Shown piece by piece: positions 2,673 through 21,521 of a DNA stretch of 64,000 nucleotides; position 1 is the first letter of the stretch; every line of letters starts with the position of its first letter. The position numbers and the translations under genes were made by a program. Source of the stretch: a virus (lineage: Duplodnaviria; Caudoviricetes); the IMG/VR virus record IMGVR_UViG_3300031993_000053, positions 9,502 to 73,501 of that record; one strand, 5' to 3'. The notes beneath the pieces are model-generated. The model was not told the origin of the DNA. It ran no database searches and was given only the letters and a program-made list of their open reading frames with translations.

Positions 2673-3293
2673 ATGGATTTTAGTGATTTATCAGTAAAAA
2701 ATAAATATGCTATTTATTGTCTAAATCAAGGTGTTTATAATGATCTTGGTGAATTAGGTGAATTAGATGAATTAGATCATGGTTGGTTCAAATTAGATGA
2801 TGATAATGATTTAGTTAATCCAGAATCAACATTGCAATTTGTTTTAACTGATACAGGTAAACTTGTTACACTTGATAAAGTGAAAAAATTAATTAGTAAA
2901 GGCTATAAAATAGTATATCCAATATTAAATGATAAAGGTATACTTAATATTTTTTCATTTATTCCTTTAACTTATGAAAAGTATAGTAAATTATATAATT
3001 GTTTATATAGTTTAATTGATACTAATTATTCTCATAATATAATTAGGGTTACTTCTGTAGATGAGTTTAGATCAATTATATTGATGATTATGGATATAAG
3101 TAAAGATAAAAATACTGGAATGAAACCTGATATTATTAAACGCATGTTTGATAAATTAAATAATGGTGAAGCTATTTATATTCATATTGATAATCTTGAT
3201 GAGTATACAGATATAACAGATGTAAGTATTTATGAAGTTGATTTAGATGGAACAAATCGTTCTGATTATAAATTATATAAGGTGATAGTATGA
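2673..3293 (+). CDS. hypothetical protein
   Basis: ORF track, AGAAAGGA RBS. Confidence 0.7.
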   Translation: MDFSDLSVKNKYAIYCLNQGVYNDLGELGELDELDHGWFKLDDDNDLVNPESTLQFVLTDTGKLVTLDKVKKLISKGYKIVYPILNDKGILNIFSFIPLTYEKYSKLYNCLYSLIDTNYSHNIIRVTSVDEFRSIILMIMDISKDKNTGMKPDIIKRMFDKLNNGEAIYIHIDNLDEYTDITDVSIYEVDLDGTNRSDYKLYKVIV

Positions 3294-3580
3294 AACGATT
3301 TTTATTCGAATGCGGACATGTAAGTGAAGGTGATCATTGTAAAATTTGTGGATGCGAACGAATTCAGTTTCAGATCCATAACATCCGAGACCACCTTGAC
3401 GGTCGGCAAGCGATGTGTGGAAAGAAAATTATAAAATCAAGGTGGGACCTACCCGGGTTTGTATATAGACCAAATGAAAAATATGATTTGTTTTTGTTTG
3501 GTAATAGAGATAAAGCATTTGGAACTGGCGTAGTTTATAAAATTGGTATTGATGGAGATTCAATAAGAGAGGACAAATAA
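3290..3580 (+). CDS. small Cys-rich (Zn-ribbon-like) protein
   Basis: ECGH...CKICGC motif. Confidence 0.55.
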   Translation: MKRFLFECGHVSEGDHCKICGCERIQFQIHNIRDHLDGRQAMCGKKIIKSRWDLPGFVYRPNEKYDLFLFGNRDKAFGTGVVYKIGIDGDSIREDK

Positions 3581-3581
3581 A

Positions 3582-4373
3582 ATGGAATTTGGTACAGATG
3601 CTAAAAAGGTATTAGACAAATTAAATAAAGACTTAAAAAAAGCTTTAGATATATTGCCTGAAGAAGATCATTTAAAAGATCCTTTTGATTATTTTCCATA
3701 TGATAAAGAAACTGCTAAAGATATTAGTCCTAAAGTTGGTGATCCTACTATTACTCATTATGATTATGGTTCAGGCAAGCCATTACCTATTGATGATATT
3801 TGTGATTCTGAATATACTTTTAGTACACCGTTTGATCCTATTAAACTTGTTTTACCTGATATTGAAGAAATAAACAAGAAAATGTTTGATAGTTTGGTTT
3901 TAACTAAAAAGTTTAAAGATAAATTAAATCTTGAATGGGAAACTGATTATGCTGATAGAATTTTTATTGTCCGAGATGATAAAGGCAAATATTATAGATT
4001 CACACAGGATTTAATAAATAATGATTTTTTATGTACAAAAGATGACTTTGATAATAGATGTTATAGATTAGCTGATACATTATTTGTTATAGATTCAATG
4101 TCTGGTTGGAAAAAAGTCTATAATTATTATAAAGAAATACAAATATTACCAATAAGACAAATTCAAGAATATTTTTTATTTAAAGACGATGAATTTTCAA
4201 CAAATTTAAATAAACCAAAAGTTATTCAATTTATTGATAATTTTAATATAGCAGCAAATAAAACTGAAGTTCGATTATTTCGATATTCACTAAATAATTT
4301 TGATGAAGTAAATGAATATATTAAACAGCGCAAGAAAACAAACCCAAATATAAAAGTGGTAAGAGTGAAATAA
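3582..4373 (+). CDS. hypothetical protein, paralog of 4375-5262
   Basis: Shared C-terminal block (F.IDS..G...(Y/W).YYK ... V(R/K)(V/I)K). Confidence 0.7.
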   Translation: MEFGTDAKKVLDKLNKDLKKALDILPEEDHLKDPFDYFPYDKETAKDISPKVGDPTITHYDYGSGKPLPIDDICDSEYTFSTPFDPIKLVLPDIEEINKKMFDSLVLTKKFKDKLNLEWETDYADRIFIVRDDKGKYYRFTQDLINNDFLCTKDDFDNRCYRLADTLFVIDSMSGWKKVYNYYKEIQILPIRQIQEYFLFKDDEFSTNLNKPKVIQFIDNFNIAANKTEVRLFRYSLNNFDEVNEYIKQRKKTNPNIKVVRVK

Positions 4374-9238: not shown

Positions 9239-9574
9239 ATGATTTATCAAGTGTATATGGGTTCTGATGTAATTAATTCATCAGTTCCACCAGAAAATAA
9301 AATTGGACAATTTAATTCTTATGATGAAGCATTAAAACAATATAGAAAATGTCAAAAAAGATGTAAAGAAATGTGTGAAGAAGAATGCTATAAATATAAT
9401 AGAAATTATTGTTATATGATTGAAATTAATCCAAATAAAAAATTATATGGATATATAAAAGGAATGAAAATTGATAATGGCTATGATTCGCGTACTGTTA
9501 TGTGGAATAGTTATTCAGCATATCCAAGTATTCATAATATGAGCCATAATGAAGAAGGATACAGCAAATATTAA
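9239..9574 (+). CDS. hypothetical protein
   Basis: ORF track, AGGTGA RBS. Confidence 0.6.
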   Translation: MIYQVYMGSDVINSSVPPENKIGQFNSYDEALKQYRKCQKRCKEMCEEECYKYNRNYCYMIEINPNKKLYGYIKGMKIDNGYDSRTVMWNSYSAYPSIHNMSHNEEGYSKY

Positions 9575-17092: not shown

Positions 17093-17419
17093 ATGAATAA
17101 TAAAGATTTTGAAAAATTAGTTGATGAACAATTTGAAATGTGTAAATCTGTTTTATGTAATAAATCTAAAGAATATGATTTTGGCGAAGATAGATTACAT
17201 AGTTTTAAAGTTGCTAGCCAGCTTTTAAAAAGCACGCCAGAAGAAGCTTTAATGGGATATTTAACTAAACATATTATGAGCTTATATGATATGGTGCCAG
17301 AAATTGATAAGTTTAGTTATGATAAATTTAATGAAAAAATAGTCGATATTTTAAATTATTGTTTATTATTAAAAGGTCTTCTTTATGAAAGGAAAAAGAT
17401 TGATGAGTCAAGCAGATAA
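17093..17419 (+). CDS. DUF1599 / nucleotide-modification-associated (MazG-like) protein
   Basis: KSKEY...DRLHSFK...TKH..S..D...EKIVD..NY pattern. Confidence 0.65.
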   Translation: MNNKDFEKLVDEQFEMCKSVLCNKSKEYDFGEDRLHSFKVASQLLKSTPEEALMGYLTKHIMSLYDMVPEIDKFSYDKFNEKIVDILNYCLLLKGLLYERKKIDESSR

Positions 17420-18242
17420 ATATTTTATTGAAGAAACTTTTGATCTTTTAACAAAAGGATTTAACGATAAAGATTTTAATGTTAGGCCACATTGGTCTGA
17501 TGGAACTCCTGCTCATACAATTAAAACTTTTTGTAGAATTAATAGATATGATTTATCAAAAGAATTTCCGATCCTTACATTAAGAAAAGCTCCATTTAAT
17601 TATGCAGTAAAAGAAATATTATGGATTTTTCAAAAAAAATCAAATAATATAAATGATCTTGATAGTCATAATTGGGATTCATGGGCAGATGAAAATGGAT
17701 CAATTGGAAAAACATATGGTTATGTAGCAGGCGAAAAATATGAATATCCAGAAGGATTAATGGACCAAGTTGATAATGTTCTTTGGTGCTTAAAAAATAG
17801 ACCAATGGATAGGCGAATGATAATTCAATTATTTAGACCAGAATATATAAAAGAATCTGGTTTGCCGCCATGCTTGTGTTCATATTTTTTTGATGTTGCT
17901 GGAGATAAATTAAATATGACTGTTATTATGCGTAGCTGTGATATGCTAAGTGCAGCAGGAGCTGGTGAATCTGATGAAATTGGAATGGCAATTTTACAGC
18001 ATATGTTTGCGCAAGTATCTAATTTAAAAGTTGGCGAATTAGTAGTTATTAAAAATAATTTTCATGTTTATGATAGGCATTTAGATATTGTTAAAAAAAT
18101 ATGTAATAATAAAGCCTATGTAGCACCAACATTTTGGATAAATCCAGAAATTAAAAATTTTTATGATTTTAAGCCTGAAGATTTTAAACTTATCGATTAT
18201 AATTATACAAAATTAGAAGAAAAAATTGAGGTAGCAATATGA
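17403..18242 (+). CDS. thyA: thymidylate synthase superfamily enzyme (N->D variant; possible dCMP (hydroxy)methylase)
   Basis: RRM, LPPC (catalytic Cys), RSCD, HVYDRH; specificity Asn position reads Asp (GAGESDEIG). Confidence 0.85.
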   Translation: MSQADKYFIEETFDLLTKGFNDKDFNVRPHWSDGTPAHTIKTFCRINRYDLSKEFPILTLRKAPFNYAVKEILWIFQKKSNNINDLDSHNWDSWADENGSIGKTYGYVAGEKYEYPEGLMDQVDNVLWCLKNRPMDRRMIIQLFRPEYIKESGLPPCLCSYFFDVAGDKLNMTVIMRSCDMLSAAGAGESDEIGMAILQHMFAQVSNLKVGELVVIKNNFHVYDRHLDIVKKICNNKAYVAPTFWINPEIKNFYDFKPEDFKLIDYNYTKLEEKIEVAI

Positions 18243-18655
18243 AAATTAAATTATTAGGTGATACTAAATGTCCTGAACGTAAAAGAAAAAATGATTGTGG
18301 TTGGGACTTTTATCTAAATGATTTTGTTTGTTTTCATAAGGGTGAAACAACAACTGTTGATACTGGCGTTTGTGTTGAGATTCCTGAAGGTTGGGCTGGA
18401 TTATTTGCATTAAGAAGCTCAATTTGTAAAACTGGTTTAACTCTTCAAAATCCATTAGTGGATAACAATTATAGAGGTGAACTTCATCTTTTAATAACGA
18501 ATAATACAGATAAAGATTTTTGTTTTTATAAGGGTGATAGAATTGCATCATTATATTGTTTTCCATACTTAACTGAAGATTTAGAAATTGTTGAAGAATT
18601 AAGTGAAACAGATCGTGGAGATAAATGGAACGGAAGTTCCAATCAGATAGCTTAG
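18239..18655 (+). CDS. dut: trimeric dUTPase family protein
   Basis: Motifs CGWDF, RSS, VDNNYRGE, GDRIASL, RG..WNGSS. Confidence 0.85.
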   Translation: MKIKLLGDTKCPERKRKNDCGWDFYLNDFVCFHKGETTTVDTGVCVEIPEGWAGLFALRSSICKTGLTLQNPLVDNNYRGELHLLITNNTDKDFCFYKGDRIASLYCFPYLTEDLEIVEELSETDRGDKWNGSSNQIA

Positions 18656-18701
18656 AGGCTCTTAGCTTCGCTAGAGCTCCTAAACTATTTATATAAAGCC
18701 A

Positions 18702-18730
18702 TTTACAAATTTGATAAAACATGATATAAT
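18702..18730 (+). promoter_or_regulatory. canonical promoter upstream of GIY-YIG/pol
   Basis: TTTACA-N17-TATAAT with TG extension. Confidence 0.8.
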
Positions 18731-18869
18731 ATTTATATAGCCAAGACACAATTAATAAATAAAGCTTTAATTATAGCATATTATGTGAATGTGTCTTGGC
18801 GGATAAAACCATATAATATGCTATCATTAAAGCTTTATTTTTAATTTATAGAAAGGTTATATAAATATT

Positions 18870-19715
18870 ATGGAAAAAAATGGTTGCTACGTTTATAAAC
18901 ATACTTGTATAATTACTGGAAAATCATATATTGGTTGGTGTTCAAGAAATCCAAAATATCGTTGGGGTAAAAATGGTTCAAATTATTTAGTAAAAAGTGG
19001 GGATAGATTATTTGACCATAAAAAATTTGCTCCTGCAATTTTAAAATATGGATGGAATAATTTTACACATGATATACTATTTTATAATCTTACTGAAAAA
19101 GAAGCATTAGAAAAAGAAAAAGAAATGATAATAAAATATGATTCTTTTAAAAATGGTTATAATAGCACTCTTGGTGGTGATGGTAGTACAGGTAGAAATC
19201 ATACAGAAGAATCTAAAAATAAAGTATCTGCAACAAAACTTAAATCGAGTAAAATTATTTATTGTTATAATAAATTTGGTGAATTAGTTTGCGCTATGAA
19301 AGGTTATAAACAAATTGCAAAATATTTAAATTTACCAAGCGGAGGAATTGCTGATTGTTGTATAAAAGTTAAAGACCAACATAATTCACATAGAACAGCA
19401 TATGGATATGTATTTGCAAATATAAAATTAACTAAAAATGAAATCAAAAAACGATATGAAAGTTATAAAAAGAAATTTGATTGTATTTATATGTATGATA
19501 TTATTAGTGAAAAATTAATAAATAAATTTTATTCCTATGAAGAAGCGATTAAAAATTCTAATATATGTAGAAGTAGTATATCAGGGTGTTGTAATGGTAG
19601 AACTCGTTTTGTAAAAAATTATATTTTTTCATTTAAAGAATTATCTAAAAATGAATTATTATTAAGAAAAAAATATTTTAATATAAAACATAAAAGGGAG
19701 TTGAATAATTATTGA
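18870..19715 (+). CDS. free-standing GIY-YIG homing endonuclease with NUMOD repeats
   Basis: CYVY...SYIG...R...; GYNSTLGGDG; NUMOD3 GRNHTEESKNKVS; two NUMOD1-like repeats. Confidence 0.92.
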   Translation: MEKNGCYVYKHTCIITGKSYIGWCSRNPKYRWGKNGSNYLVKSGDRLFDHKKFAPAILKYGWNNFTHDILFYNLTEKEALEKEKEMIIKYDSFKNGYNSTLGGDGSTGRNHTEESKNKVSATKLKSSKIIYCYNKFGELVCAMKGYKQIAKYLNLPSGGIADCCIKVKDQHNSHRTAYGYVFANIKLTKNEIKKRYESYKKKFDCIYMYDIISEKLINKFYSYEEAIKNSNICRSSISGCCNGRTRFVKNYIFSFKELSKNELLLRKKYFNIKHKRELNNY

Positions 19716-21521
19716 ATTTAATTATCTATGATTTCGAAGTGTTTAAACGAGCGTGTTTGCTAGGAACAATTATAGTAAAAGAAACGGGAGAAGAAAAATT
19801 ATTTCAAACATGGGATTTAAATACGATCAAACAATTTTATTTAGATTATAAAGATGATTCTATTTTTGTTGGATGGAATAGTAAATATTATGATGATTTA
19901 ATTTTAGAAGCAATTATTAAAAATAAAGATCCATTTGAAATATCTAAAAAAATTATCGAAAATCATGAATCATTGTGGTGTAATTTAAAATTTTATACAT
20001 ATGATGTTATGAATACTGGATTTGCTAGCCAGATATCATTAAAATTAACTGAACTTATATCAGGCGATTCTGTTGAAACAACAGAAGTTGATTTTAATCT
20101 TGATAGGGATTTAACGGAAGAAGAAAAAAAATTAACTGAAAAATATAACCAAGCTGATTTAAAAAAGACCTTTTATAATTTTAAAAAAATATATGATCGT
20201 TTTGAATTAAGACTTGGAATTATTAATGATTGGAATCTTAATTTAATGAAATGTTTAAACATGACTGGTGCTCAAATAGCAGCAGAAGTGCTTCAAGCAA
20301 AAAAAGATCCATCATTAGAATTTAAACCAGTCAAACCAATTTTATATGATAATTTACAAGTTGAAAATAAACAGGCTTTAAATTATTATTTAGAAGAAAA
20401 ATTTAGAATTGGTAACTATTTTGAAACAATAAAAATTGGAAATGCTGAGTTAACTCTTGGCGCAGGAGGCTTACACCAAGCCATTAAGAAGTGTTATTAT
20501 GACCGCTTAATGTACTTGGATGTGCGGCTTCGGCCGCAAATGAGTTAGCGGATATTATAATTTAATAGAAATTAATTTTGATTTGTTTTCAAGAACTATC
20601 TCAGAAGAAGGCAAACGTCGTTATAAAATGATGTATGATCAACAAATAGAACTTAAAAAAATTAATCCAGATTCACCTAAGCGTAAACAATTTAAAACAA
20701 TTTTGTTATCTGTTTTTGGTGCACAATCTTTTGAGGGATCTGCATTTTATGACCCATATATTGGTAAATTAATTCCAATAACAGGCGAATTATTTATGAT
20801 TGACTTTCTTGAAAAAATTCACCATTTATGTACAATAGTTCAAACAAACTCTGATGGTGCAATGATTAAACCTAATTCTGATGAAGCTGAAAAAGAAATA
20901 TTAAATATTTTAAAAAGTTGGCTAGATCGAACAAAGTTTGTAATTAAACCAAAATATATTTATGACCTTGTACAAAGAGATGTCAATAACTATGTTTATA
21001 GAGATGAAAAAGGAAATCTTGAAGTTAAGGGTGAAGCATTAAAAAATTATAATTTTGATGATAAAGAATATTCAGCAGGAACAATATTTAATTGTAAAGA
21101 GCCTTCAATAATTGCTAAAGGTGTTGTTGATTATTTAATGTATGATATATCACCTGAAGAAACTGTTGATAAATATAAAGAAGATTTAAGATTATTTCAA
21201 TATGCTTGTAAAAAAGGTGGATATAATTATTTAACATATGATACTGTTTATTATCCATCGCGAGAAACTAGTTCATATGAAATACAAAGCCCGAGTCGTG
21301 TTTTTGCTTATAATTCTAATACTGAAGCTGGTATGGTTTATAAGCACGGTATAAATAAAAAATCTGGTAAAATATCTCAAGCTAAAGTATCTAATTTACC
21401 AGATAATGTATTTATTTATAATGATAGTATTATTGGAAAGTATGAAGAATTAAAAGATAAAATCGATTGGCAATATTATGTTGATCGTATATATGAAAAA
21501 ATAGAAAATTTTATATCATAA
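19712..21521 (+). CDS. family B DNA polymerase, interrupted in motif A by a 22-nt insert
   Basis: Exo motifs YDFE, GWNSKYYD, YNQAD; removing 22 nt restores LDVSGYYNLIEINFDLFSRT; motif B KTILLSVFG; motif C QTNSDG; reconstructed length 595 aa. Confidence 0.88.
20522..20546 (+). other. candidate translational bypass element (GUG take-off, GUU landing, UUCG hairpin)
   Basis: GAT GTG|CGGCTTCGGCCGCAAATGA GTT|AGC GGA TAT; stem TGCGGC/GCCGCA. Confidence 0.65.

Follow-up and report, generated by a model that had tools for sequence, protein, structure and literature searches.

A candidate translational bypass element in motif A of a phage family-B DNA polymerase gene, beside a free-standing GIY-YIG homing endonuclease gene

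The analyzed stretch of DNA (hereafter the window) comprises 64,000 nucleotides (nt), positions 9,502 to 73,501 of the IMG/VR record IMGVR_UViG_3300031993_000053, a virus of the Caudoviricetes. It contains a family-B DNA polymerase gene which is interrupted by 22 nt within its catalytic motif A and is preceded by a free-standing gene for a GIY-YIG-type homing endonuclease. The 22 nt are probably a translational bypass (hop) element in the only DNA polymerase gene of this virus; that ribosomes would actually hop over them, and how efficiently, we infer from the sequence. A relation of the insert to the upstream nuclease, as a small indel that spoils the target of the enzyme, is plausible, and is proposed here more tentatively.

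The insert in motif A and its counterparts in relatives

The polymerase reading frame which opens with TTG at 19712–19714 (19712–20548) ends in a zero-frame TAG at 20546–20548 and is split right after the Asp-Val of motif A. In detail, GAT GTG is followed by 19 nt (20525–20543) and then by GTT AGC GGA TAT TAT. The uninterrupted polymerases of three relatives, L005, L006, and L007 (70%, 63%, and 42% identical to that of the window), read ...YLDVSGYYNLV... across the junction, and DVSGYYN is also present in about 60 further distinct relatives. Because these three genes are uninterrupted at the junction, the size of the insert is fixed at exactly 22 nt. It has a Val codon at each side and is located 809 nt downstream of the polymerase start. 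The first-pass annotation had placed an insert of this size in a conserved polymerase motif, about 0.8 kb from a GIY-YIG gene overlapping the polymerase start, and both statements agree with the coordinates found here (nuclease TGA at 19713–19715, polymerase TTG at 19712–19714).

The joined reading YLDV-SGYYN is that of the uninterrupted relatives, with matched codons at the two sides of the gap (table 1). No codon of the genome is rarer than the CGG which directly follows the proposed take-off codon (5 of 20,451 codons), and the insert itself holds two of those five. The hairpin GCGGC-UUCG-GCCGC has one copy in the window and in the 73.5-kb genome. At the end of the gap, TGA (20541–20543) closes the +1 frame just before the landing codon. 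The gap holds no GU dinucleotide, and GUU is therefore the first Val triplet that a scanning peptidyl-tRNA-Val would meet. The flanks of the insert show unusual GC-rich codons, namely CGC (Arg) at 20504–20506 and AGC (Ser) at 20547–20549, where relatives use TCN; CCGCU (20503–20507) can pair with AGCGG (20547–20551), so that the gap would lie inside a longer structure (66-nt fold).

In the proposed mechanism, a ribosome with peptidyl-tRNA-Val on the GUG would encounter, in its A site, the very rare CGG together with the compact C(UUCG)G hairpin. The anticodon would then unpair, the mRNA would slide by 22 nt, the tRNA would re-pair at GUU, the first downstream Val codon, and decoding would restart at AGC. 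The product would be a collinear family-B polymerase of 596 residues (271 + 325 codons) with the canonical motif A YLDVSGYYN, and its junction peptide would be LMYLDVSGYYNLIEINFDLFSR, as opposed to DVRLRPQMSSGYYN. Ribosomes that do not hop would stop at the TAG at 20546, and those slipping to +1 in the gap would stop at the TGA at 20541.

Table 1. Coordinates in the window of the genes and of the proposed parts of the bypass element
Feature	Position	Strand	Basis
thyA	17385–18242	+	Gene layout
dUTPase gene (dut)	18239–18655	+	Gene layout
Nuclease leader, about 215 nt: promoter-like TGATATAAT, then two long crossed hairpins (about 18740–18840)	18656–18869	+	Sequence
GIY-YIG-type homing endonuclease gene, free-standing, 281 amino acids	18870–19715	+	PHROG, homologues, fold match
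Family-B DNA polymerase, N-terminal part (polN), 271 codons to the Asp-Val of motif A	19712–20524	+	PHROG 1252
Proposed take-off codon GUG (Val); its U and G in the hairpin stem	20522–20524	+	Last codon collinear with uninterrupted relatives
Take-off hairpin, 6-bp stem UGCGGC/GCCGCA, UUCG tetraloop, −11.2 kcal/mol	20523–20538	+	Fold
CGG, "hungry" A-site codon directly after take-off	20525–20527	+	Codon count
Coding gap, 19 nt	20525–20543	+	Sequence
Proposed landing codon GUU (Val), first GUN triplet 3′ of take-off	20544–20546	+	Overlapped by zero-frame TAG 20546–20548
Polymerase, C-terminal part (polC), 325 codons, +1 frame	20544–21521	+	PHROG 1252

Relatives of the polymerase were collected by a profile search of metagenome contigs and IMG/VR, which returned about 125 loci, and a protein database added P0003/P0009 and L139. 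Three loci (L143, L144, and L145) are uninformative on motif A due to low coverage, masked Ns, or a different frameshift. The loci of the DVSGYYN clade from the profile search are all uninterrupted, with the exception of the closest relative, L011. This gene reads GAC GTC CG GTT TCG GGA TAC, that is, it has five extra bases, a Val/Val pair of codons, CGG after take-off, and a continuation in the +2 frame. L139 reads GAC GTT TCC TGA AT TCT GGT TAT TAT, with eight extra bases, a Ser/Ser pair, and a stop codon directly after take-off. P0003 is a 271-residue N-terminal open reading frame (ORF) ending in ...LLYLDVS-stop, and P0009 is its partner; on their contig (ENA ERZ28633346, 70 kb) the order is thyA, dut, an ORF of 279 amino acids, polN, polC, and terL, and the insert would be of about 14 nt, a protein-level estimate made from gene coordinates alone. 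The interrupted genes come from NCBI whole-genome shotgun data (L011), Logan (L139), and ENA and Logan (P0003/P0009). With different interruptions at the same codon in independent data sets, the feature is not an isolated assembly error. A further locus, L145 (polymerase 49% identical, nuclease gene absent upstream), is split into ORFs of 194 and 386 amino acids by a frame change near ...GAA TTT AAT ATC ATT AGA... (2400–2500), outside motif A and on a single contig.

In the window, L011, and L139, a hop between synonymous codons gives DVSGYYN, and each has either CGG or a stop codon after take-off. The shift amounts to +1 in the window and to +2 (−1) in the other two. As two frames are represented among three inserts, no single frameshift mechanism fits them, whereas one hop rule does. 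Coincidence is an improbable account, given that for a random triplet the chance is 0.04 for a Val codon, 0.08 for a stop, and 0.0016 for CGG. In a quick maximum-likelihood tree, all interrupted or nuclease-bearing genes are located in a single clade of seven members (100% support), which also includes the uninterrupted L005 and L006; the Val-type and the Ser-type inserts are placed on separate branches.

The inserts of the window and of L011 share GUN CGG YUU CGG and probably derive from one old event. They differ by three substitutions and a 17-nt block, CCGCAAATGAGTTAGCG. In L011, GTT TCG GGA encodes Val-Ser-Gly, with a TCN Ser codon as in L005, L006, L007, L139, and L140. The counterpart in the window, GCT TCG G, sits in the hairpin and its Val codon is destroyed, and the 17-nt block supplies a new GTT AGC (Val-Ser) together with the 3′ arm of the stem. 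To judge from this alignment, the 22-nt form probably grew from an L011-like 5-nt form by an insertion of 17 nt, which would have completed the hairpin. This is the simplest course; a deletion in the opposite direction is less probable.

Several points weigh against hopping at this site. The folds have z-scores of modest size (−0.9 when the hairpin is taken by itself, −2.2 for a 66-nt stretch), and there is no Shine-Dalgarno-like triplet 5–7 nt 5′ of the landing codon, where the bases are CGCAAAUGA; the sole GAG near the landing site overlaps the landing codon GUU itself. The short inserts of L011 and L139 have little structure, so that a hairpin is no shared requirement. The possible descent of the window and L011 inserts from one ancestral event lowers their independence. 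Lastly, the mechanism assumes one tRNA-Val reading both GUG and GUU and a scarce tRNA-Arg(CCG), both of which depend on the host. For the host there is a weak hint, since a polymerase of 47% identity is found on contigs binned with metagenome-assembled genomes of an Erysipelotrichaceae member and of Bacteroides.

An exact-sequence search of IMG/VR for the insert gave no match, and Rfam over positions 18600–20700 of the window gave nothing credible. Transcriptional slippage was rejected, as a homopolymer is absent, and so was a micro-intron, because inserts as short as the 5 and 8 nt of the relatives are impossible as introns. The single copy led to the rejection of a multi-copy mobile GC cluster. 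A scar left by a NotI linker or a transposon was rejected as well: the GC palindrome is similar to TGCGGCCGCA, but TTCG breaks it, and GUN CGG YUU CGG is common to relatives sampled independently.

The GIY-YIG endonuclease and its association with the interruptions

The ORF between dut and the polymerase gene matches PHROG families 314, 7168, and 5123, annotated as homing endonuclease with the GIY-YIG family among them (E-values 3e-21 to 4e-10). Its protein is 66% identical to P0052, which has the same dut-pol position on the P0003 contig, 55% to P0053 of loci L140–L142, and 38% over the full length to a protein of 337 amino acids in L011. The latter passes the Pfam cut-off for GIY-YIG (PF01541) and has three NUMOD1 repeats. 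The window protein remains below that cut-off, and its matches to NUMOD1 and to the I-HmuI NUMOD are weak, unlike those of the L011 homologue, which are strong. Across the four aligned nuclease proteins, Y9, Y20-I-G22, R31, E83, and N98 are invariant. The predicted structure (predicted local distance difference test score 69) has its best fold matches in the catalytic domain of I-TevI (1MK0/1LN0, target-normalized template modeling score 0.70–0.76). By its catalytic domain, NUMOD matches, and free-standing position, the protein is of the GIY-YIG homing endonuclease type (I-TevI/Seg-like). A PDB sequence search with the nuclease profile gave no match; a peptide-pattern search of IMG/VR for close relatives of the nuclease found none, and these were recovered by the protein database search.

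Co-occurrence of the nuclease and the interruption was scored in 52 distinct members of the clade whose upstream sequence is 1.2 kb or longer, to which the P0003 contig and L140 were added. Among the 52, L011 alone carries an upstream nuclease homologue. Interrupted genes with the nuclease number three and those without it none, while the nuclease is present with one uninterrupted gene and absent with 51 (Fisher p 1.5e-4, uncorrected for phylogeny). The first-pass annotation had named the co-occurrence of endonuclease and insert across related phages as a check. The inserts are found only in genomes with the nuclease (3/3 with known context); L140 has the nuclease and no insert in motif A.

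It is thus with some reserve that the insert is proposed as a "saviour indel" tied to the upstream GIY-YIG homing endonuclease, a plausible relation on the evidence of gene context. The enzyme, or one of its kin, would cleave polymerase alleles around motif A as long as they are insert-less, and small inserts would spoil the target. Only non-triplet inserts that ribosomes can hop over would keep the motif unchanged. In the wider family, three distant polymerase genes of about 26% identity (L108, L109, and L111) are interrupted exactly after the GAT GTT of motif A by an insertion, some 840 nt long, in which a GIY-YIG ORF is found (PF01541, E-value 3e-9). In L109, the insertion spans 3150–4010, its ORF 3215–3901, and coding resumes with TGT GCA TAT TAT CCG; the same codon boundary is therefore used by GIY-YIG elements elsewhere in the family. 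Rfam detected no group I intron in the L109 insertion. The N-terminal part of the L109 polymerase also changes frame near 2930–3030.

The relation to the nuclease has its own counter-evidence. In L140, L141, and L142, which are 100% identical and possibly represent one sample, the nuclease is directly upstream of the polymerase gene and motif A is intact. In L011, the nuclease gene is located elsewhere, between thyA and dut, 1.26 kb from the site. A co-conversion tract around the insert is not visible: no locally raised identity appears around the junction between the window and L011, and a recent tract shared with L011 was rejected for this reason. The same facts are in favor of a different explanation, according to which the hop is real and the nuclease unrelated. 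The insert would then be an attenuator of polymerase synthesis or another kind of scar, and the nuclease would target, for instance, the dut-pol junction or the exonuclease motif Exo I, where L140 carries an extra T. This explanation is held to be unlikely. The interruptions are confined to nuclease-bearing genomes wherever the context is known and are absent from all 51 without the nuclease, several different inserts at one codon suggest recurrent damage there, and the GIY-YIG insertion of L109 is at the same boundary.

The extra T of L140 (1251–1290; the same in L141 and L142) produces GAT TTT TGA AGT GTT. From its sequence, the site could be a +1 "shifty stop" similar to that of RF2, at which tRNA-Phe would slip on U_UUU_U with UGA in the A site and restore DFEVFK; it may represent a second kind of recoding scar beside the same nuclease family. 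In a contig of 1.7 kb, L138, a match to the L140 polymerase at 97.6% identity sets in about 35 nt upstream of the Val codon of motif A. Ahead of this point, the contig (L138:1–560) has an unrelated membrane-protein-like ORF, which indicates either an assembly chimera or a rearrangement with its breakpoint beside the proposed nuclease target.

The first-pass annotation had interpreted the nuclease gene and the insert as one mobile cassette, in which the enzyme cuts insert-less alleles, the insert gives immunity, and bypassing rescues the polymerase. The bypass part of that interpretation is well supported on comparative grounds, by the matched codons, the rare or stop codon after take-off, the UUCG hairpin, non-triplet inserts in three or four genomes, and selection on the downstream half (see below). 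The part concerning a nuclease cassette is one that we infer.

The leader of the nuclease gene is conserved in L140 (125–240), with compensatory changes in both helices (GACAC/GTGTC against GATAC/GTATC, and GCATAT/ATATGC against ATGTAC/GTACAT). Leader and nuclease ORF form a block of about 1.06 kb which is missing in L005, L006, and L007, where dut abuts the polymerase gene. The dUTPases of the window and of L011 (1998–2459) are only 29% identical, the L011 enzyme being of the L006 type and that of the window of the L005/L007 type. As the dut types differ and the nuclease is found on opposite sides of dut, the thyA-dut-pol module is mosaic.

Selection on the downstream half and readings without a hop

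Both halves belong to the same polymerase. The PHROG 1252 "DNA polymerase" profile is covered at positions 53–343 by polN and at 356–651 by polC, and both align with annotated phage PolB genes (about 30% identity) across the break in motif A. The family-B features were found in place, with Exo I as YDFEV near the N terminus and motif A (DV-SGYY) spanning the junction. polN is 83% identical to L011 and 66% to L005. polC, 88% identical to L011, begins with V-SGYYNLIEINFDLFSRT, the remainder of motif A. In Pfam, there was no match at an E-value of 0.01 for polN, polC, or the nuclease ORF, and PF00136 fails to detect the divergent polymerase clade which holds the window gene.

Between the window and L011, the ratio of non-synonymous to synonymous substitution rates (dN/dS) is 0.15 for polN (dS 0.75) and 0.17 for polC (dS 0.60). 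The 28 codons from the landing codon to the first ATG have nine synonymous and four non-synonymous differences (dN/dS 0.18, p 2e-4 against neutrality). The sole earlier start candidate of the window, TTG at 20583, is TTA in L011, where these 28 codons therefore include no start. Stops number 21 and 64 in the two alternative frames of polC. The substitution pattern indicates that the C-terminal half is under protein-level selection with the break in place. The virus record (73.5 kb, about 27% G+C) is otherwise dense and rated complete by CheckV, and no second polymerase was found in it. Selection on polC and the lack of another polymerase argue against both a pseudogene and a C-terminal fragment started at the internal ATG. 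An alternative genetic code was rejected, as each of TGA, TAG, and TAA terminates ORFs and table 11 leaves the long genes open.

A split polymerase, composed of an N fragment of 278 amino acids and a C fragment translated from TTG 20583 or ATG 20628 which assemble like the split gp43 or NrdA of some T4-like phages, is improbable. Gene callers do return two ORFs (P0001/P0007, P0002/P0008, and P0003/P0009), and GAAGG occurs about 15 nt before the ATG. However, such a C fragment would be without SGYYNLIEINFD, the Tyr-bearing part of motif A, and yet these codons are conserved, with mainly synonymous changes. Furthermore, the TTG is not retained in L011, and the added tail sequences of known split phage enzymes are absent.

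Slightly less probable still is a recently inactivated gene, either a pseudogene or contigs from defective genomes. A frame-breaking insert in a catalytic motif does look like a null allele; against this stand two intact halves, the low dN/dS of both (0.15–0.17 over dS 0.6–0.75) between two interrupted genomes, the persistence of an interruption at this codon with open downstream frames in three or four diverged genomes, and an otherwise dense genome, rated complete, in which no second polymerase was found.

The least probable reading, and a very improbable one, is a +1 frameshift at AGU-UAG (20543–20548), by which seven gap codons would be translated and RLRPQMS added inside motif A: the zero-frame stop and the 2-nt frame overlap are the classical setting of a "shifty stop", but tRNA-Ser cannot re-pair on GUU, seven extra residues would separate the catalytic Asp-Val from Ser-Gly-Tyr, two CGG codons would need decoding, and the +5 and +8 inserts of the relatives would have no common account.

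Comparison with known bypass systems

Programmed translational bypassing is among the rarest recoding events. To our knowledge, the natural examples that have been well studied in phages over 35 years are T4 gene 60, together with its homologues in topoisomerase genes, and a single terminase. In the T4 record, gene 60 reads GAT GGA TAG CC-TTCG-GGCTATC..., and its tetraloop hairpin starts in the take-off codon. The gene 60 family is characterized by wobble-matched codons, take-off before a stop or a rare Arg codon, a stem-loop tipped by UUCG or GNRA, gaps down to 20 nt, and, in most cassettes, a mini-Shine-Dalgarno sequence before the landing site (bioRxiv 10.1101/2022.08.31.505936). The gene 60 homologues that Manning and Atkins described, which number dozens, are without exception located in topoisomerase II genes of myoviruses, and the authors called the cassette otherwise unique; in some of these cassettes, GIY-YIG or VSR genes replace MobA (bioRxiv 10.1101/2022.08.31.505936). 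The first-pass annotation knew of no such case in a DNA polymerase or with a GIY-YIG nuclease. Its first half holds, in that our literature search found no report of bypassing in a DNA polymerase gene, and its second half must be qualified in view of the topoisomerase cassettes just named.

Similarly to T4 gene 60 and MobA, the window shows codons with the wobble base as their single difference, a codon in the A site that is hard to decode, a C(UUCG)G-tipped hairpin that includes bases of the take-off codon, stops closing the wrong frames, a homing endonuclease gene about 1 kb upstream, and an insertion in a highly conserved enzyme motif. The differences are also clear. The host gene encodes a family-B DNA polymerase instead of a topoisomerase II, and the nuclease is GIY-YIG instead of HNH. 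The gap is 19 nt (a 22-nt step) against 47 nt (a 50-nt step), and a mini-Shine-Dalgarno sequence is absent. A split of the enzyme with extra N- and C-terminal tails is absent, no sequence homology is seen beyond the tetraloop, and the inserts of relatives vary widely (5, 8, and 22 nt) at one site. By analogy, then, the window element would work like the T4 gene 60/MobA cassette and is not a member of it, since the topoisomerase gene, the HNH nuclease, and the tails are all missing.

The terminase gene of Streptomyces phage PhiHau3 provides a rare-codon (UUA) bypass, confirmed by mass spectrometry in Escherichia coli (PMC10732093). As in the window, a very rare sense codon is in the A site (UUA there, CGG here) and the hop leads to a matched codon. 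On the contrary, the PhiHau3 case concerns a terminase without a homing endonuclease, and a regulatory role through the bldA tRNA has been proposed for it.

A further parallel is offered by the mitochondria of Magnusiomyces capitatus, in which Lang and colleagues (2014) are said to have found 81 instances of multi-copy mobile byp elements. Reportedly, byps are short hairpins rich in GC that are inserted into an AT-rich genome; their take-off and landing sites have matched codons, and the gap opens with a codon that cannot be decoded. The window element is likewise a GC-rich hairpin insert in an AT-rich genome and has matching codons for take-off and landing, yet there is one copy in its genome and none was found elsewhere in IMG/VR; the dispersed copies typical of byps are thus missing.

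Short hops, hungry-codon bypassing, and the "saviour indel" idea have been reviewed by Atkins et al. 2016 (PMC5009743), and Weiss et al. 1987 are reported to have described short +5/+6 hops and stop-hops in E. coli constructs. A "saviour indel" resembles the present proposal in being a protective indel that is tolerated since some ribosomes restore the frame. The short hops correspond to the 5- and 8-nt inserts of the relatives; they belong to synthetic constructs or drug selection, whereas the inserts of the relatives are apparently natural and fixed in an essential phage gene.

The case also matters for annotation, in which polymerases of this kind at present appear as a pair of hypothetical ORFs and would count as broken. 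If the proposed reading is true, the window would represent a second, unrelated bypass family, situated in the catalytic motif of the sole DNA polymerase that a gut or rumen phage possesses. The gaps of 5, 8, and 22 nt in sister genomes would form a natural series on what a hop needs, as regards the presence of a hairpin, the choice between a stop and a rare codon, and the length of the gap. A homing endonuclease combined with a bypass insert would likewise be a general design of selfish cassettes. It is conceivable, though rather doubtful, that the clade shows how bypassing of the gene 60 type arises: repeated GIY-YIG attack on motif A would fix hoppable "saviour" inserts of 5, 8, and about 14 nt, all of them with matched codons and either a stop or a rare codon, and one of these (GUC CG GUU, as in L011) would have grown by 17 nt into the 22-nt element with its own UUCG hairpin and new landing codons. 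If this is true, natural hopping would be more than a curiosity of T4, namely a general and recurrent means by which phages put up with immunity scars in essential catalytic motifs.

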